64,000 nt of DNA from NCBI GenBank assembly GCA_963777445.1, contig CAVZQR010000016.1, forward strand, positions 4,966-68,965. Reading direction: 5' to 3'. Origin of the DNA: Candidatus Dormiibacterota bacterium. Its GTDB lineage: Bacteria > Chloroflexota > Dormibacteria > Aeolococcales > Aeolococcaceae. The notes under the pieces were generated by a model that was not told the DNA's origin, searched no databases, and was given only the letters and a program-made list of their open reading frames with translations. Positions 7,739 to 26,415 of this stretch are shown one piece after another. Position numbers and translations under genes: made by a program. The stretch's first letter is position 1. Every line of letters begins with the position of its first letter.

Positions 7739-8077
7739 CTAGCCGGATCCCCCGCTCGGAGCACCTGCCGCTGAAGGGCTCAGCATCGTGACACACACCC
7801 CAGTCCAGCAGCGCGTGTTCGAACGGGTGTAACCGCCATGCCCCGGAGGCAGTGGATCCCCCGGCTCGTACACGTACCAGATGGCGCTCGCGACGGGTGA
7901 CGGCTGTGGCAGCGTGTGGAGCACGGCATCTGGAGGATAGACCGCAGTGCCCCAGAACCAGGGGACGCTGGCGGCCACCGAGCGCGTCCGCGCGGCAACG
8001 TCGCTGTCAGCGTAGTAGCGGACCAGCAGGTACTCACTCGGGTACGCGGTGACGAGCGCCGCCTGGGCCGCAGTCCC
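7739..8077 (-). other. Out-of-frame 3' continuation of the upstream GT-C gene (probable frameshift)
   Basis: The +1 frame relative to ORF 8034..9218 is open from about 8077 to 7739. It reads 'TAAQAALVTAYPSEYLLVRYYADSD...VPWFWGTAVYPPDAV...WYVYEPGDPLPPG' with strong third-position G/C bias. A C4/G4 run lies at 8076-8079. Confidence 0.45.
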
Positions 8078-9218
8078 CGGAGATGGCGGCGACTGCCAGC
8101 GGTGTCTCGGGATTGGTGATCGCCAGTGCGGTCGCGGCTGCCACCGCAGTCGTCACAGCCGCGACGCCGAATGCCACGCGGCGCCATGGCAGGATCGCGA
8201 GCCCCGCGCCGAAGAGTGGGTACAACGGCGCCCAGGCAGTGCTCAGATACTTCCCGTCCTCGAGCGGGTGGTAAAGGCTCGCCAGGAGCATCACCCCGAC
8301 ACCGATCGCGACCGCGAGGCCCAGAAACCCGGCGGTCCCGGCACCGGCTGCGGAGAGCCGGCGGCGGTGCACGACAAGCGCGGCCAGCACCAGGCAACCC
8401 GCAACGTCACCCAGGAGCTCCAAAGCACGCAGCGCGGCAAATCCGCTCACCCAGGAGTTGAGGGGCGGCCCCGTGAAGAATTGCTCGAGGCCTCCGAAGG
8501 CGCTCTTGATGCTCAATCTCGGCACCCAGAACGCGCCGGTGCCATGGCTGAGCTGCGCTTTGGCGGCGACGATCCATGGAATCAGGCTCGCCAGGGTCGC
8601 AAGGCCCAGGACGGCCACGAGCACGACGATCGCGAACCTGCGCCGGCGGTGGAGCAGCGCCACGGTGATCACCTGCGCGAACACCGCAAAGAGCGCGAAG
8701 TACACGGTGTAGACGGCGAGAATCGACAGCGCGACGTACAACGCCCAGCGCACCGGCGACGGCCGCTCGAGTGCACGCAGCAGGCAGAGCGTCGAGGCCA
8801 GCACGAGTGTGGTCGCGAGCACGTACATGCGCGCGTCGAGCGAGCTCACCACCAGCGCCGGCGCAGCGGCCCCGATCACAGCTGCCCAGATGCCGCCGCT
8901 GTCACCGGCGATGCGGCGTCCCAGGGCCGCGACGATCGGGATCGCGGCGCTGCCCACGAGGACGGGGAAGAGGCGAAGCACGACCGGGCTGGTCGACACC
9001 ACCGCGAAGAGGCGCTCCACCAGGTAGAAGAGCGGTGGCGCGCTGTCGTTGCGGACGACTTCGATCATCGAGCCGAGGGGGCGCTGGACCGCAAGGGCCG
9101 TGAACGCCTCGTCTCGCCAGAGCGGCTGATAACCGAGCAGGGCCATACGCGCGACGAGCCCGATCCCGGAGATCAGCCAGATCTTTCCCGCATATTCGCG
9201 CAGCATCGATCCCACCAT
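8034..9218 (-). CDS. GT-C fold membrane glycosyltransferase (PMT_2/GT39/ArnT-like), apparently truncated by a frameshift
   Basis: 394-aa polytopic ORF. The first loop carries 'LWRDEAFT' (the DE motif of GT-C enzymes). It is a paralog of the next gene, and its C-terminal domain is found in another frame. Confidence 0.7.
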   Translation of the reverse strand: MVGSMLREYAGKIWLISGIGLVARMALLGYQPLWRDEAFTALAVQRPLGSMIEVVRNDSAPPLFYLVERLFAVVSTSPVVLRLFPVLVGSAAIPIVAALGRRIAGDSGGIWAAVIGAAAPALVVSSLDARMYVLATTLVLASTLCLLRALERPSPVRWALYVALSILAVYTVYFALFAVFAQVITVALLHRRRRFAIVVLVAVLGLATLASLIPWIVAAKAQLSHGTGAFWVPRLSIKSAFGGLEQFFTGPPLNSWVSGFAALRALELLGDVAGCLVLAALVVHRRRLSAAGAGTAGFLGLAVAIGVGVMLLASLYHPLEDGKYLSTAWAPLYPLFGAGLAILPWRRVAFGVAAVTTAVAAATALAITNPETPLAVAAISGDCGPGGARHRVPE

Positions 9219-9252
9219 AGTTGCGCGCCCGTGAGGCGCGCGACCCGGCGGG

Positions 9253-10887
9253 TCAGGGCAGCGACGGAACCCCGGCCTGCGGCACGACCTCGAAGACCAC
9301 GGGGTTGCCCTGGGGATCGGTCGCGCGAACCTGTGCCTCCGCGGCGATGCCGGGGCCCACGGCGGCAGCGATGTCGGCTCGGGATGGGGCGACGATCAGC
9401 GAGTAGACGGCGGCGTTCCCAATCGGGGTCATCGGGGCGACGATCGTCGGCAGCCGGCCGGCGTCCAGGAACTGGACGTCCATCGCGTCGTAGCTGTTCA
9501 GGATGACCAGCGTCGAAGGCCCACCGTCAGTCGGATTGTTGACGGCGGCATTCGCCATGGCGACATCCGCGAATGTGAACGCCACGTAGCGATCAGCCAC
9601 CGGCCGGTTGAGGTAGGTCACCGCCGACGCGATGCCGAGCATCGTCACCGCGATCGCGCAGACCATCCAGCCTGTCTGCGTCACCGAAGTGCCCGACCGC
9701 GGGATTCGCGAAGCAAGCCGCCGTGCAATAGCGATGCCCTCCAGGCAGCCGAGTCCGACGCACGCCGCGATGTATGGCTCGAGGCCGAGCGACCGGAGGA
9801 AATGCGGCGCTCCACCCTCGTTGGCGATCAGCGGCGGGATCAGGAACACGATGAGCCCGAGCAGCACCAGCGCGTACCCGTGGTCGTTGCGCCGCCGCCA
9901 GCAATGCCAGATGCCGAGCAGGAAGGGGATGACGAGCACCGGGCCCAGCAGCGGCAGCGCCGACACGTCGTGGCGCTGATTCGGATCCCCGGCGAAGAGG
10001 AACATGCCCAGTGTCTTGAGAATGTGCACCGGGTAGCTGTCAGTCGAGCCTGACGCGCTGTTGAAGACCGACACGAACGCGGCGCGTCCGAAGTACGACG
10101 AGAAGTCGGTGATCGCCGTGTACACCATCGGCGCCACCACCACCGCGAATGCGATTCCCGCCCAGGCCCAGGTCGCGCGCAGCGACCGGAATCGCTCGGG
10201 GTCGCGGGCCCGCATCCAGAGCAACCAGAGCATCGCCAGCAAGGGCAGCAGCTTCAGGGGTTGGTACGTCCAGAACCCCAGGGCCACGGCGATGCCGGCG
10301 ATCGCCGCGCTCCATCGCGAGGGCCGATCTCCCCAGCGCAGGAGCGCCGCCAGTGCCGCGGCGCCGACCAGGACCGTGAGGATGTTTCTGAACCCGTCGC
10401 GAGAGACCGCGATCATCCACAGTGATCCCGCCGTCCACGCCATCGCCATGAGCGCCGCCCCGCGGCCGAAGCGGCGCACCGCCACGAAGGTGGCGATCAC
10501 CCCGGCGACTCCGACGGCCGCCGCAGCGCCACGCAGGGTGAGCACTGAGGATCCGAAGACCTTGAAAACGGCGGCGACGATGTACGCGTACAGCGCCTCG
10601 CGGCCGCCGTCGCTGTTGAAGAACACGGGGTGATAACCCGGTGTCGTCAGCAGGCTCTGGGCGCTGAGCCCTTCGGCCGCCTCGTCGGGGTAGAGACCCC
10701 CTGGTTGGTTCTGGAGCGCCCAGAAGCGCACGACGATCGCAGCGAGGGTGATCAGGACGGCGGCCGCAGCCTCTACTGCAGTCGCCGTCCCGAGGCGCCG
10801 TACGACGCCCGTTATGCGGGTGATCCGGCCCCCGTCAATTCGAGGCTGGATCGGTGCAACAGCGTCCTGGTGGCGGCGATGCGGCAC
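9253..10887 (-). CDS. GT-C fold membrane glycosyltransferase (PMT_2/GT39/ArnT-like)
   Basis: 544-aa ORF with 'GGLYPDEAAEG' in the first periplasmic loop, multiple TM helices and a C-terminal soluble domain. Confidence 0.75.
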   Translation of the reverse strand: MPHRRHQDAVAPIQPRIDGGRITRITGVVRRLGTATAVEAAAAVLITLAAIVVRFWALQNQPGGLYPDEAAEGLSAQSLLTTPGYHPVFFNSDGGREALYAYIVAAVFKVFGSSVLTLRGAAAAVGVAGVIATFVAVRRFGRGAALMAMAWTAGSLWMIAVSRDGFRNILTVLVGAAALAALLRWGDRPSRWSAAIAGIAVALGFWTYQPLKLLPLLAMLWLLWMRARDPERFRSLRATWAWAGIAFAVVVAPMVYTAITDFSSYFGRAAFVSVFNSASGSTDSYPVHILKTLGMFLFAGDPNQRHDVSALPLLGPVLVIPFLLGIWHCWRRRNDHGYALVLLGLIVFLIPPLIANEGGAPHFLRSLGLEPYIAACVGLGCLEGIAIARRLASRIPRSGTSVTQTGWMVCAIAVTMLGIASAVTYLNRPVADRYVAFTFADVAMANAAVNNPTDGGPSTLVILNSYDAMDVQFLDAGRLPTIVAPMTPIGNAAVYSLIVAPSRADIAAAVGPGIAAEAQVRATDPQGNPVVFEVVPQAGVPSLP

Positions 10888-12724: not shown

Positions 12725-13711
12725 ATGGGGCAGCCTGTCATCAGCGTTCGCGACCTCGTCAAGACTTACGGGAAGGTCGAGGCTGTCCGCGGCATCGACC
12801 TGGGGGTCGGCGCCGGCGAGATCTTCGGGTTTCTCGGCCCCAACGGTGCGGGGAAGTCGACGACGATCAGCATCTTGTGCACGCTCATCCGCCCGACGTC
12901 GGGGGTCGCCGAGGTCGCCGGCTTCGATGTCGTCAAGGACCCGAGCGCGGTCCGCGCTCGCATCGGCCTGGTCTTCCAGGACCCATCGCTCGACGGCCAG
13001 CTCACCGGGCGAGAGAACCTCGACTTCCACGCGTACCTCTACGGCCTGCCTGCCGCGACACGCAGGCAGCGCATCGATGACGCGCTGTCGATCGTCGAGC
13101 TGACCGATCGCGCCGAGTCGACCGTGCTCACCTACTCGGGTGGCATGCGCCGCCGCCTCGAGATAGCCCGCGGGATCCTTCATTACCCACAGGTCCTGTT
13201 CCTTGACGAGCCGACGCTTGGTCTCGACCCGCAGACACGCAACAAGATCTGGGACTACCTGCAGGCGGTGCGTATTCGGGAGCACATCACCATCTTCATG
13301 ACCACGCACTACATGGACGAGGCGGAGTTCTGCGATCGGATCGCGATCATCGACCAGGGCAAGATCGTCGCCCTTGGCACTCCGTCGGAACTCAAGACGA
13401 GGGTGGGCGGCGACGTTGTCACCATCACCACTCCGGACGTCTCCGCCGCTGCCGAACAGCTGCACCGGGTCATGAGCCTCGAATCGACCCAGGTCGACGG
13501 CACGCTGCAGGTCGAGGTCGCGGATTCCGCGTCGTTCATGCCGCGACTCTTCGCCGAGCTGAGCGTGCCGATCACCGCGGTGAGCGCCCGCCGCCCGAGC
13601 CTCGACGACGTATTCCTCAAGCTCACCGGTCGCGCCATCCGTGAGCAGGGAAACACGTCGCTGGATACGATGCGAAACATGGGCAGGATATGGGGAGGTG
13701 GCCGCCGATGA
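12725..13711 (+). CDS. ABC transporter ATP-binding protein (ABC-2/DrrA-like exporter)
   Basis: Walker A 'GPNGAGKST', signature 'YSGGMRRRL', Walker B 'VLFLDEPT'. Confidence 0.9.
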   Translation: MGQPVISVRDLVKTYGKVEAVRGIDLGVGAGEIFGFLGPNGAGKSTTISILCTLIRPTSGVAEVAGFDVVKDPSAVRARIGLVFQDPSLDGQLTGRENLDFHAYLYGLPAATRRQRIDDALSIVELTDRAESTVLTYSGGMRRRLEIARGILHYPQVLFLDEPTLGLDPQTRNKIWDYLQAVRIREHITIFMTTHYMDEAEFCDRIAIIDQGKIVALGTPSELKTRVGGDVVTITTPDVSAAAEQLHRVMSLESTQVDGTLQVEVADSASFMPRLFAELSVPITAVSARRPSLDDVFLKLTGRAIREQGNTSLDTMRNMGRIWGGGRR

Positions 13712-14595
13712 CGGAACAGGCGCTGACCGCTCCGACGCTTCCGCAGGCACGGGCGGTGAACATTCGCGGTGCGACGCTGCGCGCGATCTACATCATCTGG
13801 AAGCGCGACATCATCCGCTACTGGCGCGATCGCATGCGCGTGGTCGCATCGCTCGCGCAACCGGTGCTGTTTCTGTTTGTCTTCGGCAGCGGACTCAGCT
13901 CGTCGCTGCGCGGGAGCACCGGCGGATTCGGCGGTCCCAACTCGTCATTGCAATACGTGCAGTTCATCTTTCCGGGAATCATCGGGATGTCGGTCCTTTT
14001 CACGTCGATCTTCGGCGCGATGTCGATCGTCTGGGATCGAGAGTTCGGGTTCTTGAAAGAGGTGCTCGTGGCGCCGATCCATCGCTCCGCGGTGGCCATC
14101 GGCAAGACGCTTGGGGGCGCGACCCAGGCGATGTTCCAGGGCATCGTCATCCTGATTCTCGCCCCGTTGGTGGGTGTCAAGTTGACGTTCCTGGGCGTGG
14201 CTGAGCTGATCCCGATGATCTTTCTGTTCGCGTTCGCGCTCAGCGCTCTCGGGGTTGCGGTCGCGGCCCGGATGCGCACCATGCAGGGGTTCCAGATGGT
14301 GATGAACTTCCTGATGATGCCGATGTTCTTCCTCGCCGGTGCGCTGTTCCCTCTCGGTGGCAACCTCCCGGCGTGGCTTTCTGTGCTGACACGCTTCGAC
14401 CCCGCCAGCTACGGCATCGATGCGCTCCGGCGCACCGTGCTCAGCGCCTCGGGCGTCCCCTCGAGGGTCCTGGACAGCCTCGGCCTGACCGTGTTCGGTC
14501 ATCCGCTGTCGGTGTGGACCGAGGAGGCGGTGCTCGTCGCCTTCGGGGTGCTCATGCTGAGCCTGGCCGTGTACGGATTCCGACAGCGCGACTAA
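13708..14595 (+). CDS. ABC-2 type transporter permease
   Basis: ATGA overlap with the ATPase stop (13708-13711). About 6 TM helices and ABC-2 permease-like sequence. The ORF is open from 13690. Confidence 0.85.
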
Positions 14596-14606
14596 AAAAG
14601 GCCACC

Positions 14607-14612
14607 TATAAT
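14607..14612 (+). promoter_or_regulatory. Candidate -10 box (TATAAT) upstream of clpP
   Basis: A perfect TATAAT sits in the only AT-rich patch of the region (ACTAAAAAAGGCCACCTATAATGGAAAACGT). It lies 9 nt before the clpP ATG. No good -35 and no Shine-Dalgarno were seen. Confidence 0.3.
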
Positions 14613-14621
14613 GGAAAACGT

Positions 14622-15323
14622 ATGAATCCGACCAATCTGATCCCGTACGTCATCGAGACCACGAATCGGGGCGAACGCGGGATGGACATCTACTCGCGGT
14701 TGCTCAAAGACCGAATCATCTTCATCGGGACGCCCATCGACGACCAGGTGGCCAACGTCGTCATGGCGCAGTTGCTCTTCCTGGCCGGTGAGGACCCCGA
14801 GAAGGACATCTGGCTGTACATCAACTCCCCGGGTGGATCTGTGTATGCCGGCCTGGCCATCTACGACACGATGCAGTACGTCGAGCCGCGAGTCGGCACG
14901 ATTTGCATGGGCATCGCGGCGTCCATGGCAGCCATCCTGCTCGCCGGCGGCGCAGCGGGAATGCGTCTCAGCCTCCCGAACACCCGCGTGCTCATCCATC
15001 AGCCCTCGGGCGGATTCAGCGGTCAGGCGACCGACATCCAGATCCACGCGCAGGAGATCCTCCGCGTGCGCCGCCGCCTCGACGAGATCCTGGCGCACCA
15101 CAGTGGCAAGCCCATCGAGGTCGTCAACCACAACTCCGATCGCGACTTCTTCATGAGCGCCGAGGAGGCCAAGGAATACGGCCTCATCGATGAGATCATT
15201 CAGGGCCGCATCAAGAGCGGTGGCGCTCCCAACGGTGAGAGCAGCAACGGCGGGCGGCCGCCCGGCGCGCCGCCCGAGGCAGAGACACCCCAGGCGGGTG
15301 GCGGCGCAACAGCGCACGCATAA
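14622..15323 (+). CDS. clpP: ATP-dependent Clp protease proteolytic subunit
   Basis: Start at ATG 14622 ([28 protein letters not shown]). Catalytic Ser in 'GIAASMAA', His in 'LIHQP', Asp in 'SDRDFFMS'. About 37 aa of Gly/Pro-rich C-terminal tail. The upstream part of ORF 14373.. overlaps the permease. Confidence 0.93.
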
Positions 15324-15374
15324 CGGAGACCGAACGGTCGTTGGTAGGAATGCAGACAAACCAAGGGGTATGCG

Positions 15375-16664
<1,290 letters not shown>

Positions 16665-16681
16665 GGGTGAGCCGCCGATCC

Positions 16682-17254
16682 ATGGCATTGGCCGTGGCGG
16701 CTGTGGGTGTCTTCCTGGCGGTGACCCTGATCACCCTGACGCACGTGGTCACCAATGGCGCGTCGGGCTGCGCGATCGCCGCACCAGCCCCGAGCCTGCC
16801 GGCCGCGCTGCGAGCACTCGGTGGCTTCGACCAGTCGTACGACGCGGGCGATCTCCAGCAATTGGCTCAGGTGGGCCAGAACGCCGCATCCGTGGTGAGC
16901 CCGAACCTTGACGGAGCCACGCCGCTCGAACCCGTGAGCGTGGCCGCGGCCGCGCCGGGACACCCGGCTGCCGTCGTCGTGCCGCTCGCCGCCCAGGATG
17001 GCACCGGGAGCGGGGTGCGCCTCGTCGGGCTCGTGTCGTTCTACGTCGGCTGCGGCGGGCGGGCGTACTTCGGGGCGGTCACCGATATCTCCACACAAGG
17101 CTCGGGTGCTCCCCTGAGCTTCCCCGCCGTGGGGGAAAGCGCGGCTGCCGCTCAGCTCGCGACCTCGACCCCACAGCTCGTCTACACGGCCTCGCCATTC
17201 ACACCCGAATGGCGCAATGCGCAATCCGGGGCGACCATCGCCGCAGGCGAGTAA
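16682..17254 (+). CDS. Hypothetical membrane-anchored/secreted protein
   Basis: ATG 16682 gives an N-terminal TM/signal helix 'MALAVAAVGVFLAVTLITL' followed by an Ala/Gly/Ser-rich domain. No family recognised. Confidence 0.5.
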   Translation: MALAVAAVGVFLAVTLITLTHVVTNGASGCAIAAPAPSLPAALRALGGFDQSYDAGDLQQLAQVGQNAASVVSPNLDGATPLEPVSVAAAAPGHPAAVVVPLAAQDGTGSGVRLVGLVSFYVGCGGRAYFGAVTDISTQGSGAPLSFPAVGESAAAAQLATSTPQLVYTASPFTPEWRNAQSGATIAAGE

Positions 17255-17285
17255 CACCCGGTCGGCCCATATACTCAATCGCCCA

Positions 17286-19934
17286 ATGGAAAAGCATTTC
17301 GACTGGTCCAGCGTGGAACCGAAGTGGCGGGAGCGCTGGAGGGATCTCGGCGTGGGACACGCCGATGTCACAAGCACCAAACCGCCATTCGTCATCGCGC
17401 TCCCACCTCCCAACATCACCGGCGCCCTGCACATGGGACACGCATCGACGTTCTCCATCCAGGACACCGTGTGTCGCCACCGGCGGATGCGCGGCTTCGA
17501 GGTCGAATGGTGTCCGGGGACCGATCACGCGGCAATCGCGACGCAGAACGTCATCGAGCGGCAGCTTGCCGATGAGGGCACGAGCAAGGAGGAGCTCGGC
17601 CGAGCCGCGTTCCAGGCGCGCGTCGACGCGTGGTACGAGGAATACGGCGGGCGCATCTACGAACAGATGCGGCGGATGGGCTACACCTGCGACTGGGAGC
17701 GTTCCCGTTTCACGCTTGACGACCAGTACGTCCGCGCCATCCGGCTCGTGTTCAAGACGCTCTTCGACGAAGGGCTCATCTACAGGGGCCCGCGAATCGT
17801 CAACTGGTGTCCGCGCTGCCGCTCCGCCATCAGCGACGAGGAGATCGACTGGCAGGAGCACACGGATCCACTCTATTACCTGAAGTATCCCGTCGACGGT
17901 GGGCTCAGCATCACGGTCGCGACCGTGCGACCGGAGACGATGCTCGGCGATACGGGCGTCGCGGTCGCACCCGGTGACCCTCGTTACGCGGCGCTGATCG
18001 GAAAGCACGTGACCCTGCCGCTGACCTGGCGGGTCGTGCCGATCTTTGCCGATCCCGCGGTGCGGCCCGAGTTCGGTACCGGAGCGCTCAAGGTGACCCC
18101 CGGACACGACCCGACCGACTACGAGATAGGAGTGCGGCACTCACTGCCGATCATCAACGTCATCGCCCTTGACGGCACCATGGATGTGCCGTCGCTCCCG
18201 CAGTTCCACGGCATGCCTGCCGAACAGGCGAGGATCGCCGTCTCGCAAGCACTGCGTGAGATCGGCGTGCTCGTGAAACAGGAGCCGTACCTTCACGAGG
18301 TGGGTCATTGCGATCGCTGCGGCACCATCCTCGAGCCGCTCGTGAGTGAGCAATGGTGGGTGCACATGGCGTCGCTGGCAGCGCCGGGAATCGGAGCCGT
18401 GGAAAGTGGTGAGATCGTCTTCCACCCCGCGCGTTACTCGGACGTCTATCTGCACTGGATGCGCAACATCAAGGACTGGTGCATCAGCAGGCAGATCTGG
18501 CTCGGTCATGCCATTCCGGTGTCGACCTGCGCCAACGGTCACCGCTTCGCCTGGATCGAGCCACCGCACGCGTGTCCCGAGTGCGGCGACGCGTCGCTCA
18601 CCAACGATCCGGACGTGCTCGACACCTGGTTCAGCAGCGGTCTCTGGCCGTTCGCCATCTTCGGATGGCCCGAGCACACGCCTGAGCTGGAGCGGTTCTA
18701 CCCGACCGACGTTCTCGCAACCGATCGCGGGATCATCTTCCTCTGGGTTGCCCGAATGATCATGACGGGCATCAAGTTCACCGGTCGGAACCCCTTCAGC
18801 GATGTGCTGATCACCAGCACCATCCAGGCCGCTGACGGAAGCCGGATGAGCAAGTCCAAGGGCAACGTCATCGATCCGCTCGACCTCATCGATCGGTTCG
18901 GTGCCGACGCCGTTCGAGCGTGGGCGGCCGCGGTGGGAACGAGCGGCCAGGACATGCGATTCGACGAGGACCGCATCGCCTCGTACCAGCGATTCGCCAA
19001 CAAGCTGTGGCAGGTCACCAACGGTTTTCTCGTCGCCAAGGTCGGCAATGGATCGATCGCCGAACTGGACGTCCATCCGCCCAAGCCCGAGACGCTTCGC
19101 CCCGAGGATCGATGGATGCTGGCCGAGCTCGCGGCCGTGGTTCGCGAGTGCGATGCGGGCTTCGTGGCGTTTCGCTTCCACGACGCGGTCGAACGTCTCT
19201 ATGACACCGCGTGGCATTCCTTCTGTGATTGGTACGTCGAGATCATCAAGCTGCGTCTTGCCGATGCCGGCGATCACGAATCGCGTCGGGCCGCGGTGTG
19301 GACAGCGGTCACGACGCTCGACGTGCTCCTGCGCCTGCTCCACCCGTTCATGCCGTTCGTGACCGAGGAGTGCGCGCAGCAACTGCCGAACGCCGCACCG
19401 ACGTTGCAGCAGCGTTCCTGGCCGGAGGAGGACCCGCTCTGGAGTGATGGCGAGACCGCGGCAGCACACCAGGAGATCGCCGAGGCCATCGAGCTCGTGC
19501 AGCGGATCCGGGCGCTCGGCCACACCCATCGCGTGCCGCGTGGCACCCGCGATCGGATCCGTGTCGTGGTTCGCACCGCCGACAACCGGGGGACGAGCAG
19601 GCACATCACGCGCCTGATCGGAGGGCTCGTGCCCGCCATGGTGGTGGAGAGCCACGAGCGTGGCGTCGATCCAGTGGTCGTGGTTTCGGGTAGGCTCCAC
19701 GCCGAGGTGGTGATCGCCGACACCGCCGCCGACGCAAGTGCGACAGCACGTCAGATCGGCCTGCTCGAGGCAAACGTGTCGCGGCTTCAGGCACAGCTCG
19801 CGAACCCGGCGTTCGTGAACGGGGCACCGGCCCAGGTCGTGGACGAGACGCGCCGGCGGCTCGCCGAAGCCCTCGGCCAGCTGGACGTGCTCCGCCGGGG
19901 CCCGACAGGAGGATCCACCGATGCTGCTGGTTGA
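17286..19934 (+). CDS. valS: Valine--tRNA ligase
   Basis: 'PPPNITGALHMGH' (HIGH) and 'SRMSKSKGN' (KMSKS), plus a C-terminal coiled-coil. Start at ATG 17286 (MEKHFDW). Confidence 0.95.
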   Translation: MEKHFDWSSVEPKWRERWRDLGVGHADVTSTKPPFVIALPPPNITGALHMGHASTFSIQDTVCRHRRMRGFEVEWCPGTDHAAIATQNVIERQLADEGTSKEELGRAAFQARVDAWYEEYGGRIYEQMRRMGYTCDWERSRFTLDDQYVRAIRLVFKTLFDEGLIYRGPRIVNWCPRCRSAISDEEIDWQEHTDPLYYLKYPVDGGLSITVATVRPETMLGDTGVAVAPGDPRYAALIGKHVTLPLTWRVVPIFADPAVRPEFGTGALKVTPGHDPTDYEIGVRHSLPIINVIALDGTMDVPSLPQFHGMPAEQARIAVSQALREIGVLVKQEPYLHEVGHCDRCGTILEPLVSEQWWVHMASLAAPGIGAVESGEIVFHPARYSDVYLHWMRNIKDWCISRQIWLGHAIPVSTCANGHRFAWIEPPHACPECGDASLTNDPDVLDTWFSSGLWPFAIFGWPEHTPELERFYPTDVLATDRGIIFLWVARMIMTGIKFTGRNPFSDVLITSTIQAADGSRMSKSKGNVIDPLDLIDRFGADAVRAWAAAVGTSGQDMRFDEDRIASYQRFANKLWQVTNGFLVAKVGNGSIAELDVHPPKPETLRPEDRWMLAELAAVVRECDAGFVAFRFHDAVERLYDTAWHSFCDWYVEIIKLRLADAGDHESRRAAVWTAVTTLDVLLRLLHPFMPFVTEECAQQLPNAAPTLQQRSWPEEDPLWSDGETAAAHQEIAEAIELVQRIRALGHTHRVPRGTRDRIRVVVRTADNRGTSRHITRLIGGLVPAMVVESHERGVDPVVVVSGRLHAEVVIADTAADASATARQIGLLEANVSRLQAQLANPAFVNGAPAQVVDETRRRLAEALGQLDVLRRGPTGGSTDAAG

Positions 19935-20388
19935 CCTGGGGACGCTCCTCACCGGGGTGCTGGTCGTCGTCATCGCCTACCTGGTTGTGCTCTGGCTCGC
20001 CCTGGCTTTCTACGTCGTCCGCGACGCCAGGCGGCGCACGACATCGCCCGGATTCACGCTCTTCGCGATGCTGCTCGGCTTCGTGCCGCCCTTCCTCGGT
20101 GCCCTGATCTACTTCATGGTGCGTCCGCCCATGACGATGGAGCAGGTGCGTTCGCTGGCGATCGAGGAGCAGGTGCTGCTCGAGCCACCGGTCGAGGGAG
20201 TGCCCACGAGGCCCTGCCCGACCTGCGGGCGCGAGATCGAGCAGGAGTTCATTCTGTGCCCGTACTGCCGGACCCAGTTCGCGCGGCGTTGCACGGGATG
20301 CGATCGCAGCCTCCGGCTCGGCTGGGGGGTCTGCCCCTACTGCGCCACCGAGGTCGGAGCGCCGGCGCTGGCCCGTACCGGGAGGTAG
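19921..20388 (+). CDS. Membrane protein with C-terminal double zinc-ribbon
   Basis: Two N-terminal TM helices, then 'CPTCGREIEQEFILCPYC' and 'CTGCDRSLRLGWGVCPYC'. It overlaps the valS stop by 14 nt. Confidence 0.7.
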   Translation: MLLVDLGTLLTGVLVVVIAYLVVLWLALAFYVVRDARRRTTSPGFTLFAMLLGFVPPFLGALIYFMVRPPMTMEQVRSLAIEEQVLLEPPVEGVPTRPCPTCGREIEQEFILCPYCRTQFARRCTGCDRSLRLGWGVCPYCATEVGAPALARTGR

Positions 20389-20395
20389 CGTCACG

Positions 20396-22063
20396 ATGCT
20401 GGGCGGTGGGCTCCAGCTCGCGCTCATCCCCGCGCCGTTGATCGCAGCGGCGATCGTCGTGTTCGCGCTCTCGCCGCGGCAGGCGCGTGCTGCACAGGTC
20501 GTCGCCGGAGCGGGCATTGCAGCGACGATCGCGTTGCTCGCGGTGGAGGCGGCGTTTCTCAACGGCAGCGGGCGCATCGAGACCTCGCTCGGGATGCCTG
20601 TCGCTGGAATCGCCTACCTCCTCAGGCTCGATCTGCCCGGCGCGACGCTCGGTCTTGCGGCATCCGCCGCCGGTCTCCTGATGGTGCTCGAGAGCGACCG
20701 TCAGACCCGCGAGGTCAGCGCGCTGCTCGTCTGCGTCGCGGGCACGCTCGTCGCGGCGCTCGCCGGCAACGTGGTGATGCTGGCCGGTGGTGTCGAGATC
20801 GCCGGAGTCGGGACCCTGCTCATGACCAGCGCCGCGCGCGGTCGTCCCGGTCGCGGCGGCCTGGTCGCGATCGGCCTCGAACACCTCGCCTCGCTCGGCC
20901 TCGTTGTGGCCGCCGTGCAGCTCCTGAGCGTCGCCGGAACCACCGATTTCGCGGTCATACCGGCAGGAGCAATGGGCGCGACGATCGCCGGGCCGTGGGC
21001 AGCGGCCGGCGCGATCCGACTGCTCTCTCCCGCATTCGTCCCGATCCGCGGAACCCGAACGCCGACAGCCGCATGGGCGACAACCGGCGCCCTCCCCTGC
21101 GGAGCGATCGTGCTCCTCCGGCTTCGCGAGGCGGCAGCCGGTCCCCTTCCGCACTCGATCGCGATCGGCCTGGCGGCGGTTGGCGGGGCGGTGGCGATCC
21201 TGGCAGTGGTTGTCGCCCTGCGCGCGTCGGGCGCACCGGCGGTCGTTGGCCGAGCGCTCTGCGTCATCGCCGCGGCCCCGGTGATCGCGCTGACCGGCAT
21301 TGCCGGCGCTGCAGCCGGCGCGGGTGTTGCGGCCGGAATCTGCTCTGTGCTGCTGGCCACGGCGCTGACGCCGGCCTGGGAACACATCGGCCGGGGTCGG
21401 TCGGGGACATCCCTCGCCGCGTTCGCCCTCGGGGCCGCCGGGTCCCTGCCGATCGGGTTCGGGATCACGGCGCTGCTCCTGGAGCTCTCGGCGACGGTTG
21501 CGATCGGCCGGCCCGCGACTCCGCTCCTCGCCGCGCTCGGTCTGGCCGGCGTGCTCGGGGCGGCCGCGGCGGTCCAGGCAGCATGGCGGGTCCTGACCTC
21601 GGGACGAAGCGCCGCGAGCACCAGGTATCCATCGCTGCTCGGGGCGGTCGCCGTGGTCGTATCGCTGGTTGCGGCCGTCGTGCCCGGGACGGTGGCGACC
21701 TCTGTGCTCGCGGCGCTCAACCCAGGCGGTCTCTCGGAGCCGATCGGCGCCGCTGCGATCCGGACCAACGCCGGCGACTGGTCGGGCGGATACGTCGTGG
21801 TCGCATTTGCCATCGTCGCTGCGGGCGTCTGGGCGCTTGCCACGCTCGCGGGCTGGTCGCTCCTGCGCGAATCGCCCGCTCACCACGTCGCGTCTGCGAC
21901 AGGCTCGGTCGGGCTCCGGGCCGTCCGACGGTTGCGTCCGGCGGCCGTTCGCGGCAGCACATGGCTGCGCCAGACGGACGACTGGCTCGTGGCGCAGCCC
22001 CAGCTCTTGTTGGTCTTCGTGGGAGCGGTCCTGGCAATCGTGCTGCTCCCGCTGTTCCACTGA
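20396..22063 (+). CDS. Polytopic membrane protein, divergent NuoL/MrpA/HyfB-like antiporter-type subunit
   Basis: 555 aa, very hydrophobic. 'GGVEIAGVGTLLM' and 'GAIRLLSPAFVPIRGTRTPTAAWATTGALPCGAIVLLRL' resemble TM5 and TM7-8 signatures of the Proton_antipo_M family by eye. Third-position G/C is high. The antisense ORF is Arg/Asp/Gly-rich nonsense. Confidence 0.6.
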   Translation: MLGGGLQLALIPAPLIAAAIVVFALSPRQARAAQVVAGAGIAATIALLAVEAAFLNGSGRIETSLGMPVAGIAYLLRLDLPGATLGLAASAAGLLMVLESDRQTREVSALLVCVAGTLVAALAGNVVMLAGGVEIAGVGTLLMTSAARGRPGRGGLVAIGLEHLASLGLVVAAVQLLSVAGTTDFAVIPAGAMGATIAGPWAAAGAIRLLSPAFVPIRGTRTPTAAWATTGALPCGAIVLLRLREAAAGPLPHSIAIGLAAVGGAVAILAVVVALRASGAPAVVGRALCVIAAAPVIALTGIAGAAAGAGVAAGICSVLLATALTPAWEHIGRGRSGTSLAAFALGAAGSLPIGFGITALLLELSATVAIGRPATPLLAALGLAGVLGAAAAVQAAWRVLTSGRSAASTRYPSLLGAVAVVVSLVAAVVPGTVATSVLAALNPGGLSEPIGAAAIRTNAGDWSGGYVVVAFAIVAAGVWALATLAGWSLLRESPAHHVASATGSVGLRAVRRLRPAAVRGSTWLRQTDDWLVAQPQLLLVFVGAVLAIVLLPLFH

Positions 22064-22710
22064 TGGGGGTTTCCGCACCGCTTCTCTCAGTGGCAGGGGT
22101 GATCGCAGCGGTGGTTGCGATGATGGTGGACGGGCGCCGGGCGGCGGCCATCGCGATCGTCTTTCTCACCGCGGGGCTCGCCCCGACCGCGGCGACCTTC
22201 GGCGGCGCGCCGGGGGCCGCCGTCCTCGGCGCATGCGCAATCGCGGCGGTGGTGCTCGCCTACGCAGGTTGGCTCGGCGGCCGCGTCCTCCCGTGGCTCA
22301 CCGGCCTCGATCCGACCATCCCGGCCTTCGCGCCCGCCGACAGGCTCTTCGGACCCCGGAGCGCCCGGGCGTTTGGAGCCGCGGTTGCGTTGCCGGTTGC
22401 GTCATGGGTCAGCTTCAACGTGCCTGTCGGCCAGGTGACCGCCGTCGAGGGTCTGCTCTTTCCCATCGTGTACGCCTGGACCTGCGGGGTCATCCGGCTG
22501 CTGGTCGCTCGAACCCTCGAGGACCTGGCAGTCGGGGTCGCGATGGTGGGCATCGCGACTGGAACTGCCTGGCTGCTCCGCAGCGGGAACGATTCCTTTC
22601 CTGGATCGGTCCTCGCCTGCTCGGTTGCACCGCTGGCGGCTTTCCTCGCCGGTTGGCTGCACGGTCGAAGCTCGCGCCGGTCCCGCCCGCTTGTTGATGC
22701 CGAAGCGTGA
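22063..22710 (+). CDS. Polytopic membrane protein (HyfE/HycP-sized, NuoK-like?)
   Basis: TGATG overlap with the upstream stop. 215 aa, about 6 TM helices. Assignment rests on size and context only. Confidence 0.5.
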   Translation: MGVSAPLLSVAGVIAAVVAMMVDGRRAAAIAIVFLTAGLAPTAATFGGAPGAAVLGACAIAAVVLAYAGWLGGRVLPWLTGLDPTIPAFAPADRLFGPRSARAFGAAVALPVASWVSFNVPVGQVTAVEGLLFPIVYAWTCGVIRLLVARTLEDLAVGVAMVGIATGTAWLLRSGNDSFPGSVLACSVAPLAAFLAGWLHGRSSRRSRPLVDAEA

Positions 22711-23951
22711 ACCCCGCTGTCATCGCCGCGACGTGGCTTGGCCTCGGCCTCGTGGCTTCAGCGCTTCTCCGCCGCCCCACGGCGCGGCTGGTGGCGGTTG
22801 TTCCGCTCATCGGTGCGGGGCTGACCCTCCTGGCCGCTCGGTCCACGACGGTGGCAGTGCCGCTCGGCGGCCTAGGCGGAATCAGCGGCCTCGACAGAGC
22901 CGGCCAGGGGGTCCTGGTTTCGGCGGGCATCTCGATGGCCCTGGTGATGCTCCTCCAGCCCTCACTGGATGTGTCGGTTGGACGGACCATCGGCGTCGTC
23001 GGGGCGGCCGCGACGATCGCCATGGCCAGCAGTGATCCGCTGGTCACGGCGCTGGCGCTGACTGCCGCGATCGCGACCCTGGTCCTTCGCTGGATCGGGC
23101 AGTCGCCGGGCAAGGCGACCCTTGCAGCCGGGCGGGTTGCCGGCACGGGCACCGCGGCGATGGTTGCGGCGTCGCCGTTCCTGCCACTCACCGGGTTCAC
23201 GACCGGAGCCCGTCCCATTGTCGTCGCGGCGCTGCTTGCCACCGGCGTCGCCGCCCTCCTCGCGGTGTACCCGCTCGGCGGCTGGGCTGCGGGGATCATC
23301 CGGTCGCTCGACCCCATTGATGTCGCGCCGTGGCAGGTCCTCCTGGTGCCGGTGGTGCTGATCATCGCCGAGCGGATTCCAGGAGGGGTGCTCGGCGATG
23401 GAAGTCCGATCTTCGAGCACCTTCTCCTCGTCGTCGGGCTGGGCAGTGCCGTCTGGGGCGGATTCTGGGCCGCTCGCGGTTCGCCAGCGATGCGCTATGG
23501 GCGCGTCTTCATGGCCGACATCGCGCTCTGCGTCGCCGCCGTCGAGGGGGCAGCGGCATCTCCGGCCCTGACCGGTGCGCTGATCATCGTGGTCACGCAT
23601 CTCTGCCTGGCGCCGATCCTCCTGCGACCGGAGCGCGCCGGCCTGCTCTGGCCGAGACGGGTCGCCTGGGCCCTGCTCAGTGGGGTCCCTCCGTCGCCGA
23701 CCTTCTGGGGCCGGCTGCTGCTCCTCGAGGCACTCGCCGCGGGCAACGTCGGGTCGACGATCGCCGCGGTGATCGCGATGGCATCGATCTTCATCGCCAC
23801 CGTCATGGCGTGCTCGAGCAGGGCGGTCGTCACGCCCGCCCGAGGGTGGCGGGGACGGCTTCCGGAGCTCGCTGCCTGGTTGCTGCTTGCAGTTGGGATC
23901 GCGATCGGACTGGCCCCGCAGTCACTCACGCGATTTGTGTTCGGAAGCTGA
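22707..23951 (+). CDS. Polytopic membrane protein, divergent NuoN/MrpD/HyfF-like antiporter-type subunit
   Basis: GTGA overlap with the upstream stop. 'LLATGVAALLAVYPLGGWAAG' and 'LSGVPPSPTFWGRLLLLEA' resemble 'GxxxKxxxxPFHxWLPDA' and 'SLAGxPPxxGFxxK' by eye. Confidence 0.6.
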   Translation: MNPAVIAATWLGLGLVASALLRRPTARLVAVVPLIGAGLTLLAARSTTVAVPLGGLGGISGLDRAGQGVLVSAGISMALVMLLQPSLDVSVGRTIGVVGAAATIAMASSDPLVTALALTAAIATLVLRWIGQSPGKATLAAGRVAGTGTAAMVAASPFLPLTGFTTGARPIVVAALLATGVAALLAVYPLGGWAAGIIRSLDPIDVAPWQVLLVPVVLIIAERIPGGVLGDGSPIFEHLLLVVGLGSAVWGGFWAARGSPAMRYGRVFMADIALCVAAVEGAAASPALTGALIIVVTHLCLAPILLRPERAGLLWPRRVAWALLSGVPPSPTFWGRLLLLEALAAGNVGSTIAAVIAMASIFIATVMACSSRAVVTPARGWRGRLPELAAWLLLAVGIAIGLAPQSLTRFVFGS

Positions 23952-23956
23952 GCGAG

Positions 23957-24694
23957 ATGGATCCACTCGGGCTCCTGCTCGAAATCGTCGCACTCGCCGT
24001 GTACCCCGGCGGCCTGTTCCTCGCGGTGATGGCCCGGATCATCTATCGCGGTGCCGGCCTGGCGCCGGGCACTGCGCTCGACGTCCGGGGATTTGCTGCG
24101 ATCGCGGCGGCGGTCGCGGCAGCGGCGATGGCACCCCTGCCCGGTACCCCGGCGGCGTCGCTGCCACCTGCTGGAGGGGCGACGCCGAACCTGCTGGCGG
24201 CGGTGCTCCTGGTTGTGGTCGCGGGGTCGCTGGTTGCGCCGGCGCCCTGGTCGCACCGGAGGATCATTCTGGTGACCTTCGCGGGGGCCTCGCTCGTCCT
24301 CCTCGGGCTCGTGGCGACCTCCTTGTCCACCACCGATATCTCCGGTTCGACCGGCGGCGTGAACGCTGCGGCTCGCATCCTCACCGTGATCGCCGTGCTG
24401 GTCGCGCTGCCCGTGCTGCTGAAGCCCCAGAGCGCGGCCGGGTCGGTGGCGGCCCGCGCCATCGTGGTCGCCGCGTCGCTCGTGGTTGTCCTCGCCATCG
24501 TGATTCCTCCGGCCCAGCAGTGGCCCGCGGCTCCCCTCTGGGTCGTCGGGCTGGTCGTTGCGGTGGGGGTCTATGCGCTCCTGCTGCGGCTCGGGCAAGC
24601 CCTCGCCGGGAAGGAGCATCTGTCCGTGGTGACGGTCGCCTGGCTGTGTTCGATCGCCGCGTCGGTGACGGCCGTGATCGCGGCGCGGCCATAA
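23957..24694 (+). CDS. Polytopic membrane protein (short NuoH/HycD-like?)
   Basis: Starts 5 nt after the upstream stop. 245 aa. The N-terminus 'LAVYPGGLFLAVMARIIYRGAGLAPG' is reminiscent of the HycD/NuoH N-terminus. The resemblance is weak. Confidence 0.45.
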   Translation: MDPLGLLLEIVALAVYPGGLFLAVMARIIYRGAGLAPGTALDVRGFAAIAAAVAAAAMAPLPGTPAASLPPAGGATPNLLAAVLLVVVAGSLVAPAPWSHRRIILVTFAGASLVLLGLVATSLSTTDISGSTGGVNAAARILTVIAVLVALPVLLKPQSAAGSVAARAIVVAASLVVVLAIVIPPAQQWPAAPLWVVGLVVAVGVYALLLRLGQALAGKEHLSVVTVAWLCSIAASVTAVIAARP

Positions 24695-24805
24695 AGCCTT
24701 GTGCGCGAACGCCGACTTCGTCAACTGGGCGTCGCGTCGCGGTGCTAGCATGGAACGTGAGTTGGCGCGAGATTTCGATGCGGCCGTTGCGCACGTGACC
24801 GCCAC

Positions 24806-25465
24806 GTGATTGGAATCGTGCTCGCGTCCCGGTCGCCTCGGCGGCGCGAGTTGCTGACCCGGGCGGGGATCCGTTTCCGGATCATGGAACCTCCCGAGGA
24901 CGTCGCTCTTCCCGTCGGCGTGAGCGCTGAGCTTGCGGTGCAGCTGGTCGCCCGCCAAAAAGCTGTCGCGGTGAGCAAGCTCGTTCCAGAAGGAACCTAC
25001 CTCCTGAGCGCCGACACGATCGTGGTCGGCCCACGCGGTCCGCTCGGCAAGCCCCGGACGCCGGAGATGGCCCGTGAGATGCTGAGCGATCTCCGTGGCA
25101 AGCGCCACACAGTGCTGACGGGTGTGTGCGCGATGTGCACCGGGAGCGACCATGAGGCGCTCGGCGTGAGCAGATCCGCCGTGAAGTTCTGCGACTTCAC
25201 CGACGACGCACTGGACATGTACGTCGCCTCCGGCGAGCCCCTCGACCGTGCCGGCGCGTATGCGATCCAGGGTGGCGGCTCGGACTTCGTCGAGGCGGTT
25301 GCCGGGCGGATTGACACGGTCATCGGGCTCGACGTCGGGCTGGCGCTTCGCCTGCTTGGCGAGATCGGCTACCCCGACCCGCTCCCGCGCACCACCGACA
25401 TCATGCTGACCGCGTCGCGGCAGCGGCGACCGCTGGCGCCGCTTCGCACCGCTACCAGGGTCTGA
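24806..25465 (+). CDS. maf: Maf-like nucleoside triphosphate pyrophosphatase (septum formation protein)
   Basis: 'IVLASRSPRRRELL' N-terminal signature and 'YAIQG' near the C-terminus. GTG start. Confidence 0.9.
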   Translation: MIGIVLASRSPRRRELLTRAGIRFRIMEPPEDVALPVGVSAELAVQLVARQKAVAVSKLVPEGTYLLSADTIVVGPRGPLGKPRTPEMAREMLSDLRGKRHTVLTGVCAMCTGSDHEALGVSRSAVKFCDFTDDALDMYVASGEPLDRAGAYAIQGGGSDFVEAVAGRIDTVIGLDVGLALRLLGEIGYPDPLPRTTDIMLTASRQRRPLAPLRTATRV

Positions 25466-25485
25466 CCGTTTCGCGGGGCAGGCGG

Positions 25486-26415
25486 ATGCGGGCACTCGCG
25501 GCACACCTGACGGGAGTGCTCGCAGTCTCGATCCTGGCGCCGATAGCGCTGGTCCTTACAGCGTGCAGCAGCCAAGCCGCGCAGCTTTCGGTGACGCTCG
25601 CTTCGGACTTTGGGGCGTCATACACTCCCGGGACGAGCGATGCCGACTTCGTGATAACGGTGCAAAACCTCGGTCCCGGCAATGCATCCGGCGTTGTGAT
25701 CCACGCGCTCATGCCCGCTGCGTTTCAGTACGCCGTGACCAACTCGATCACCACCAACGGCGCTGCGCGGACCACACCGGTTGACCCGCAGGTGGGTGTC
25801 ACCAACCCGGAGTGGGGCGTGTGGTCACTCTCCTCGCCGACATCGCCGAACGGCACGACCGACAACGCGTCGGTCACGATCGACTTCGGGGTCAACATCA
25901 CCGCGCAGCCTGACACCTACAGCCTCGCCGCCCAGGTGGTGGACGACAGTCTCACCGACACGGTGCAGAGTCACCCGCTTCCGATCGCCATCAATGAGGC
26001 ACCCCGCCTCAGCGTGTCCGCATCGGTCGGGCCGACCTCGGTGCATCCCAATGGGCAGGTCACGTACCGGGTCACGGTCACCAACAAGGGCACCGGGATC
26101 GCTCCGACGGTCGACGTGCTGGTCACGCTGCCGCCGGTGCTGCAGTACCAGTCCACGATCACTCCGTTCGGTGGGAACTCTTCAGTGGAGTCGTTGATCT
26201 CACCGGTCCTGGGCGCCTACCTGGTCTTCTATGGCGGCTTCGAGATACCCCCCCAGACCACCCTCGGCCCGGGGACGCTCACCATCGAGTTCATCGCGCA
26301 GTGCATCCCACTTCCCGGGAAGGGTGTCTTCACCATTCAGGTCGCGGTCACCGACGCGTTGCGGGACCGGGTGGGCCTCGCCAACGTGGCGCCGCTGAAC
26401 GTCCTCAGCTCGTAG
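25486..26415 (+). CDS. DUF11 repeat-containing lipoprotein
   Basis: Signal peptide with lipobox 'LVLTAC'. Two repeats of the DUF11 type: 'ITVQNLGPGNASGVVIHALMP' and 'YRVTVTNKGTGIAPTVDVLVTLP'. Confidence 0.7.
   Translation: MRALAAHLTGVLAVSILAPIALVLTACSSQAAQLSVTLASDFGASYTPGTSDADFVITVQNLGPGNASGVVIHALMPAAFQYAVTNSITTNGAARTTPVDPQVGVTNPEWGVWSLSSPTSPNGTTDNASVTIDFGVNITAQPDTYSLAAQVVDDSLTDTVQSHPLPIAINEAPRLSVSASVGPTSVHPNGQVTYRVTVTNKGTGIAPTVDVLVTLPPVLQYQSTITPFGGNSSVESLISPVLGAYLVFYGGFEIPPQTTLGPGTLTIEFIAQCIPLPGKGVFTIQVAVTDALRDRVGLANVAPLNVLSS

Follow-up and report, generated by a model that had tools for sequence, protein, structure and literature searches.

A divergent complex I/Mrp-type membrane gene cluster without an adjacent redox module at a fixed locus between valS and maf in Dormibacteria

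What does a bacterium keep when it retains parts of a complex I-type membrane arm with no redox module beside them? This question is raised by a cluster of five open reading frames (ORF1 to ORF5) in a Candidatus Dormiibacterota bacterium (GenBank assembly GCA_963777445.1, contig CAVZQR010000016.1, positions 4,966 to 68,965 of the forward strand), a stretch of 64,000 nucleotides referred to below as the window. The five ORFs lie head to tail on the plus strand, tightly packed directly 3' of the valyl-tRNA synthetase gene valS, and span positions 19921-24694. As far as we know, antiporter-like subunits are confined to respiratory complexes, CO2-uptake modules and Mrp antiporters, and every NuoH-type subunit described is the place where a redox arm docks. 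A preliminary description, drawn from the letters and their translations, had read the cluster as a stand-alone membrane module with two antiporter-like proteins, a HyfE-like protein and a shortened NuoH/HycD-like protein. The present analysis establishes that the membrane protein set encoded here derives from the membrane arm of the superfamily of complex I, group-4 hydrogenases and Mrp antiporters, with no redox module adjacent to it. The module is a highly divergent new offshoot of the complex I/Mrp membrane arm and not a new kind of machine.

Two of the ORFs encode antiporter-like subunits: ORF2 (20396..22063, plus strand, 555 aa), a long form of NuoL/MrpA/HyfB type extended at its C-terminus, and ORF4 (22707..23951, plus strand, 414 aa), a 14-helix form of NuoN/NuoM/MrpD type. 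The reference alignment for HHalign profile comparison comprised seven E. coli paralogues and later 16 NuoL, NuoM, NuoN, Hyf and Hyc sequences from four phyla. ORF2 matched the E. coli paralogues at 95.5% probability (expect value, E, 1.3e-8) and, with distant orthologues added to its own alignment, the 16 references at 97.8% probability (E 8.4e-13). For ORF4 the first alignments gave E 1.2e-5, and the distant orthologues together with the 16 references gave 95.8% probability and E 7.9e-9. The two proteins matched each other at E 0.2 with the first alignments and at E 4.9e-7 over 345 columns after the distant orthologues were added. The peptide motifs picked out by eye in the preliminary description were present in both proteins and aligned to the TM5, TM7 and TM12 signatures of the family (TM, transmembrane helix). 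Hydropathy analysis of ORF2 revealed additional hydrophobic segments at residues 409-442, 462-491 and 529-555, reminiscent of NuoL and MrpA, and about 12 ORF2 homologues carry the JGI COG-type name 'formate hydrogenlyase subunit 3/MnhD'.

Standard family models failed to recognize these proteins. In Pfam and NCBIfam scans of ORF2 and ORF4 the only match at E<=1 was to NuoN (E 0.07, over 38 residues of ORF4), and Pfam scans of 21 ORF2 homologues and of 10 of the most distant full-length ORF2 relatives returned no domain. PDB sequence and profile searches with ORF2, ORF3, ORF4 and ORF5 were empty at E<=10. The Pfam profile check proposed in the preliminary description thus gave no significant match for any of the four membrane proteins. 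The structural comparison of ORF4 was more informative. Its AlphaFold2 model, built from 21 sequences (predicted local distance difference test, pLDDT, 80; predicted template modelling score, pTM, 0.86), contains 14 main helices, with the seventh and twelfth broken (169-184/193-198 and 314-323/331-344). In a Foldseek search of the PDB the top match of the model was MrpD (6z16_D, E 3e-9), and the matches comprised MrpD, NuoN, NuoM, NuoL, NdhB/D, HycC and MbsH at query TM-scores of 0.73-0.80. As modelled, ORF4 is an antiporter-like protein with a predicted fold superposable on solved members; ORF2 is an antiporter-like protein by its profile matches, its fold being predicted from these and from the homology to ORF4. 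The antiporter-like assignment made earlier for both proteins was therefore upheld.

The cluster is not confined to a single genome. The order valS-(ORF1)-ORF2-ORF3-ORF4-(ORF5)-maf was found in 52 GTDB species genomes and in approximately 10 metagenome loci, which bears out the search for valS-adjacent homologues that had been proposed. Across all of these roughly 60 related loci the core ORF2-ORF3-ORF4 lay between valS and maf, and valS was directly upstream of the cluster in every locus extending that far. In a set of 5.8 billion proteins, ORF2, ORF4 and ORF5 each had just some 120-130 clusters of homologues; those with names were almost all from Candidatus Dormibacteria/Dormibacterota, and a few metagenome-assembled genomes (MAGs) with other taxon labels showed the same synteny. 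When the ORF2 profile was run as a full hidden Markov model search against 1.84 billion representatives, no more than 95 proteins reached E<=1e-3. Contigs were traced for six of the most distant hits, and all were at the same genomic place. One distant clade has the order metE-valS-ORF2'-ORF3'-ORF4'-ORF5'-maf, in which the zinc-ribbon gene (ORF1) is absent. At locus L067 (JGI 3300060356, a 2.7-Mb contig, 13549-20639) the order is valS-zinc ribbon-ORF2'-ORF3'-ORF4'-maf-mreB-mreC-mreD-pbp2-rodA, and ORF5 is absent. Since the zinc-ribbon gene and ORF5 are each missing from some lineages, the invariant core is ORF2-ORF3-ORF4, and ORF1 and ORF5 are accessory. Every Dormibacteria genome sampled contains the cluster, which is inherited vertically in this lineage and always occupies the one position between valS and maf. 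Nearly all source records label the family members 'hypothetical protein', and no description of the module was found in the literature searched, in Pfam or in NCBIfam, in agreement with the earlier statement that the system is undescribed.

Several side observations accompany this distribution. Loci L005, L028, L038, L043 and L052 and protein P0455 carry NCBI labels of Saccharimonadales, Acidiferrales, Binatia or Verrucomicrobiae, yet have a Dormibacteria-type locus. ClpX was 99-100% identical in L005, L028 and L038 and less similar in the rest; the labels look like misassignments. The palsa_, bog_ and fen_ names of some MAGs with the cluster suggest the Stordalen Mire peat sites. Three apparent ORF4-ORF5 fusions (P0100, P0103 and P0111) proved to be frameshifted gene calls with out-of-frame Arg/Gly-rich stretches and not natural fusions. 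L067 is the most distant relative. In the window and the other traced loci reaching past maf, a DUF11/CARDB protein directly follows maf, mostly with rplU next. Because this gene and not mre-rodA directly follows maf, the rod-shape genes are missing from that position in most Dormibacteria. The DUF11/CARDB-repeat surface protein (window 25486-26415, plus strand) was directly downstream of maf across the loci viewed, and in L067 it comes after the mre-rodA genes.

A redox arm was sought around the cluster. The Pfam scan covered the called genes at approximately 1-14.6 kb and 25.5-40.6 kb of the window, leaving out approximately 14.4-15.3 kb and the ORF at 16550-17254. Among the genes scanned within about 20 kb in the window there was no NuoB/C/D/I, hydrogenase, Fe-S or Mrp small-subunit gene, and the window flanks held only housekeeping and envelope genes. 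Likewise, none of these genes was present in the 8-10 kb flanks, where contigs reach, of the approximately 60 related loci. The claim that no peripheral-arm gene lies nearby accordingly holds well beyond the single contig on which it was made.

If the antiporter-like scaffold has been kept, has its machinery been kept with it? Residues were mapped through the HHalign alignments, and columns were counted across 27 sequences, among them those of the distant clades. Leu replaces both the TM5 Glu and the TM7 Lys of ORF4, Val replaces its TM8 Lys, and the TM12 Lys position is R336, an Arg in 27 of 27 sequences. Also in TM12, the 'PP..F' of 'GxPPxxGF' is kept as P328, P329 and F333. Residues P189, W193, R263, P328 and F333 coincide with family-invariant positions, R263 being the retained Arg of the 'KRLLAYS' motif, and the TM11 His is mostly retained (H298). 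In ORF2 the invariant TM5 Glu corresponds to E134, which does not vary within the core clade, to which the window belongs; in the six distant orthologues the position reads E, A, V, A, Q and Q. The TM7 Lys of ORF2 falls at a variable hydrophobic position (207) adjoining the conserved R208, and the TM8 Lys/His at P234. Charged residues invariant in all 27 sequences are R64, D271 and R336 of ORF4, R242 of ORF2 and R140 of ORF5; ORF4 R143 and ORF2 D79 differ in one sequence, and ORF4 R263 and ORF2 R208 in one or two. The substitution of several canonical Lys/Glu positions, proposed earlier by eye, was thus corroborated. As judged from these alignments the canonical Lys/Glu relay is dismantled, and with its residues replaced the complex probably no longer pumps protons by classical hopping.

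These replacements bring forward an alternative that is considered unlikely, if one to be weighed seriously, namely that the cluster encodes a structural or scaffolding relic whose fold is kept without transport and which would act as a platform in the membrane, supporting for instance the zinc-ribbon protein or neighbouring envelope or cell-shape machinery. The relay residues are almost all gone, and the TM5 Glu of ORF2 is not conserved outside the core clade. The subunits also evolve faster than their neighbours, with identities to the window of 35-59% where valS retains 56-70% and clpX 86-94%, and in L067 the cluster lies directly upstream of maf-mreB-mreC-mreD-pbp2-rodA. However, the invariant buried residues R64, D271 and R336 of ORF4 and R242 of ORF2 exceed what a passive scaffold would need, as do the near-invariant R143 and R263 of ORF4 and D79 and R208 of ORF2. 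The valS ... maf-mre neighbourhood, moreover, is an old synteny block, as Bacillus gene order indicates, so that the adjacency to the mre genes says little, and no partner was identified.

The last gene of the cluster, ORF5 (23957..24694, plus strand, 245 aa), encodes an eight-helix membrane subunit with short loops, probably of NuoH/ND1/HycD-like fold. It evolves fastest of the five. Its AlphaFold2 model, built from 50 sequences, reached a pLDDT of 79 and a pTM of 0.81 (the other four models, 50-70). In Foldseek comparison with the PDB nearly all of the top 50 matches were NuoH, ND1, NdhA or MbsM (best E 6.3e-3, TM-score 0.56-0.63); no match reached E<=1e-3, and the next, unrelated fold type had a TM-score of 0.2. 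Against an 11-member NuoH/HycD/HyfC profile HHalign gave E 0.04-0.12, which is not significant, and comparisons with NuoA, NuoJ, NuoK and antiporter-like profiles were not significant either. ORF5 had no Pfam or PDB sequence match, and no Pfam family is on record among the 120 homologues listed. Only P17, P65, R140 and P152 are conserved family-wide (27 sequences). A NuoH-like fold of ORF5 is, on the strength of the model, somewhat more likely than not. The earlier proposal of a shortened NuoH/HycD is moderately supported: the structural matches are almost purely of NuoH type, but marginal, with a best E-value of 6e-3 and a TM-score of about 0.6, and the profile E-values are 0.04-0.12.

With a NuoH-like subunit in view, the cluster might be the membrane arm of a split enzyme whose peripheral module (NuoB/C/D/I-like, hydrogenase, CO dehydrogenase or other) is encoded elsewhere and docks on ORF5. 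The best structural matches of ORF5, to NuoH, ND1 and MbsM, are indeed to the subunit that carries the peripheral arm. This possibility is nevertheless improbable, as none of the approximately 60 loci has such a gene near the cluster and ORF5 is missing altogether from L067. Furthermore, ORF5 falls about 80 residues short of the length of NuoH, and its modelled loops are short. In complex I, acidic residues and long loops of the NuoH-type subunit build the quinone cavity and E-channel; with R140 as the one charged family-wide residue of ORF5, both these acidic residues and the long loops are missing.

Between the two antiporter-like genes in all related loci lies ORF3 (22063..22710, plus strand, 215 aa), a polytopic protein with about six to seven hydrophobic segments and a part of the conserved core. 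Within the core clade D23, R25, D83, R99, R102, R145, D154 and R173 are invariant. The preliminary description had likened ORF3 to HyfE, and this likeness was not sustained. Comparison with a 7-member HyfE profile by HHalign gave E 0.34-0.79, which is not significant, and comparison with NuoK, NuoJ and NuoA family profiles gave E 0.16-0.63 (NuoK alone, E 0.5-0.6). The method is able to detect such relationships, since the positive control of HyfE against NuoK returned E 9.6e-6. There was no significant match of ORF3 to NuoH or antiporter-like profiles, and Pfam scans of ORF3 and 18 orthologues found no family. No MrpB, C, E, F or G Pfam family was present in ORF3, the 18 orthologues or ORF5. 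The HyfE signature residues (MENG and PELVE, with two intramembrane Glu) have no counterpart in ORF3. A single-sequence hint of similarity to HyfE (E 0.035 around 'LFGP') disappeared against the HyfE family profile and is attributed to chance. As far as its sequence can tell, ORF3 would resemble HyfE only in size, helix count and gene position between antiporter-like genes.

The first gene, ORF1 (19921..20388, plus strand, 155 aa), encodes a small membrane protein, with two hydrophobic helices in its N-terminal part and a double zinc ribbon in its C-terminal part, and is an accessory found in some clades only. It is the only one of the five recognized by Pfam/NCBIfam, through the double zinc ribbon (DZR, PF12773, E 1.3e-8, residues 99-141), and a weak PLDc_N match covers residues 23-68. 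Identity across loci is 60-99%. ORF1 is absent from the metE-valS clade and present in L067. The loop between its two helices is positively charged (RDARRR); the positive-inside rule would place the zinc ribbon outside the cytoplasm, which would be unusual for a Cys4 zinc ribbon.

A predicted zinc-binding protein beside antiporter-like subunits calls to mind vectorial CO2 hydration or other non-redox chemistry, as in DabAB and CupA-NdhD3/F3, with ORF1 as the catalytic partner; a stand-alone antiporter-like subunit with a zinc protein is a hallmark of DAB systems. Such chemistry is highly improbable here. ORF1 carries a 50-residue structural double zinc ribbon and not a carbonic-anhydrase-like domain, and a whole clade keeps ORF2 to ORF5 without it. 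Neither DabA (PF10070) nor CupA was found among the scanned neighbours in the window, and no DabA was found in the related loci.

Are these ORFs real genes, and do they form a unit? The junctions were as the preliminary description gave them. The valS gene (17217..19934, plus strand), identified as an ORF with its translation, is genomic context and not a module component; its stop overlaps the ORF1 ATG at 19921 by 14 nt, with AGGAGG upstream of the ORF1 start. From the ORF1 stop at 20388 to the ORF2 ATG at 20396 there is a 7-nt gap, with GGGAGG upstream. ORF2 stop and ORF3 start share TGATG at 22061-22065, ORF4 start and ORF3 stop share GTGA at 22707-22710, and a 5-nt gap separates the ORF4 stop (23951) from the ORF5 ATG (23957). 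After the ORF5 stop at 24694 a 111-nt spacer leads to maf (24806-25465). A promoter/terminator scan and an Rfam scan of 14-28 kb returned no match.

With its GC content of 64-73%, the window contains long chance ORFs on both strands. The GC content at third codon positions (GC3) was 0.83-0.90 for ORF1, ORF2 and ORF4, the three kept by a crude GC3-based gene call. Ratios of nonsynonymous to synonymous substitution (dN/dS) were 0.03-0.14 for ORF1, 0.14-0.31 for ORF2, 0.07-0.19 for ORF3, 0.10-0.19 for ORF4 and 0.16-0.40 for ORF5, and the cluster range of 0.03-0.40 is close to the 0.06-0.13 of valS. Given the coding GC3 pattern where measured, the same-order orthologues and the low dN/dS, ORF1 to ORF5 are real genes under purifying selection and not chance ORFs of high-GC sequence. 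Two antisense ORFs that overlap the cluster, 20249-22078 (minus strand, 609 aa) and 23495-25504 (minus strand, 669 aa), were dropped by the GC3-based call and are taken for chance ORFs of high-GC sequence. An AT skew of -0.24 to -0.33 (T well above A) at 20001-24000 is confined to the cluster and probably reflects its very hydrophobic products, rich in Ala, Gly, Leu and Val (56-61% of residues in ORF2 to ORF5).

The close spacing or overlap of the genes with one another and with valS points to co-transcription and translational coupling, and co-transcription with valS would imply constitutive, housekeeping-level expression. Of the earlier view of the five ORFs as one unit, the coupled layout and the conserved ORF2-ORF3-ORF4 core hold, while ORF1 and ORF5 are each missing in some lineages. 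That coming and going, together with the lack of direct evidence for interaction, would fit unrelated membrane proteins brought together only by a common operon with valS, with no complex formed. This is quite improbable, as the ORF2-ORF3-ORF4 order is invariant with overlapping start and stop codons and families of multisubunit assemblies account for two or three of the products. To our knowledge, the families of ORF2 and ORF4, and of ORF5 if it is NuoH-like, have so far been met only as parts of such assemblies.

Pfam matches in the window flanks include GGDEF, AlkZ, GNAT, leuS, glycosyltransferases and tig, as well as an ABC transporter, DUF11, rhomboid, PBP1 and DD-carboxypeptidase, and clpX, valS, maf, rplU and obg were identified from translations or by tblastn to Pfam-annotated orthologues in related loci. 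Two neighbouring PMT_2/GT87-type membrane glycosyltransferases occupy window positions 8034-10887 (minus strand). Between clpX and valS, the ORF at 16550-17254 (plus strand) has a hydrophobic segment in its N-terminal part, starting near residue 45, and lacks an obvious called counterpart in locus L001; at the same spot L067 has an unrelated-looking 277-aa lipoprotein-like gene.

Comparison with known systems places the cluster among several relatives. Like the Mrp (Mnh/Pha/Sha) antiporter, it would be redox-independent and pairs one long (MrpA) with one short (MrpD) antiporter-like subunit, the genes for small polytopic subunits lying between these two and behind them, and MrpD 6z16_D is the top structural match of ORF4. 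Unlike Mrp, it lacks Pfam-detectable MrpB/C/E/F/G, has 4 or 5 genes instead of 6 or 7, has lost the Lys/Glu relay of MrpA/D and includes an ORF5 that looks NuoH-like; we know of no NuoH-like subunit in Mrp. A second comparison is with the arm of group-4 [NiFe] hydrogenases and formate hydrogenlyase (E. coli HyfB-C-D-E-F and HycC-D; mycobacterial HycD-P-Q; Ehr). The hyfD-hyfE-hyfF order of antiporter-like, approximately 215-aa polytopic and antiporter-like proteins is mirrored by ORF2-ORF3-ORF4, a NuoH/HycD-like subunit is probable in ORF5, and HycC is among the structural matches of ORF4. However, no hydrogenase large or small subunit, NuoB/C/D/I-like or Fe-S gene is adjacent to the cluster, ORF3 fails the HyfE profile and lacks its Glu signature, and no HycD-type sequence signature is detectable in ORF5.

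With the membrane domain of complex I (NuoH, A, J, K, N, M and L) the cluster shares the predicted ORF4 fold, close to NuoN/M/L, a probable NuoH-like fold of ORF5, and the long form of ORF2 with extra C-terminal helices as in NuoL. It differs in having 2 antiporter-like subunits instead of 3, no detectable NuoA/J/K, no peripheral arm and no intact relay. As in DAB (DabA/DabB) and the cyanobacterial CUP systems, antiporter-like subunits occur outside a classical respiratory complex; unlike them, the cluster has no DabA or CupA partner. Furthermore, DabB is a single subunit recognized by Pfam PF00361, whereas ORF2 and ORF4 go unrecognized by Pfam.

Taken together, we lean slightly towards a stand-alone, redox-independent derivative in which the antiporter-like scaffold still serves to handle ions. 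The module's identity has good support, and its activity is a guess: residual or altered ion handling as such is put forward tentatively and must be called doubtful. By analogy, the products would probably assemble side by side as in complex I and Mrp, in the order ORF5-ORF3-ORF4-ORF2 or similar. Loss of classical Lys/Glu hopping would leave a non-classical activity, for which candidates are slow exchange of cations and protons, or the conduction or sensing of ions along those Arg, Asp, His and Glu residues that remain. A bolder version, distinctly unlikely in our estimation, is a complex I-type arm, NuoH-like subunit included, that works alone with fixed arginines in place of the proton-carrying lysines. 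As a repurposed machine it might handle anions or lipid headgroups at the broken helices, or sense voltage or ions through the zinc-ribbon protein; as a side branch, NuoH-type and antiporter-type subunits would associate without a hydrogenase or Q module.

Several points weigh against a stand-alone ion-handling derivative. The near-total loss of titratable relay residues argues against ion translocation and favours the structural alternative. ORF3, with no detectable relative, leaves a gap in the complex I analogy, and the NuoH-like reading of ORF5 draws on one medium-confidence model and marginal Foldseek E-values without support from sequence profiles. That the five products would form one complex is a deduction from the genes. 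The residue mapping of ORF2 is of low confidence beyond TM8 and unreliable in the TM12 region. ORF1 to ORF5 contain 0, 0, 0, 1 and 2 Lys, or 3 in 1584 residues, against 11 in 1239 residues for three further membrane proteins encoded in the window, which fits the loss of the relay. Yet Lys is scarce genome-wide in this organism of 68% GC (valS has 17 K against 77 R), so that part of the Lys-to-Arg pattern is compositional. Finally, the search for partner genes covered the window and the locus flanks and not whole genomes, where a partner module could be separately encoded. With these points considered, ion handling is still ranked first, a purely structural role second and a split enzyme third, with DAB-like chemistry unlikely.

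In practical terms, the family can now be annotated, and it provides a conserved marker locus, so far for Dormibacteria only. Should the products assemble and be active, they would let nature show which parts of the antiporter-like fold are required for which task, and they would add an unannotated family missed by the Pfam and NCBIfam models used. If inactive, the module would clearly exemplify a bioenergetic machine converted to another use. The side-branch version, if true, would bear on the evolutionary assembly of complex I. A whole bacterial lineage thus keeps such parts, under selection and at a housekeeping locus, without an adjacent redox partner or the proton-transfer residues thought to be essential.

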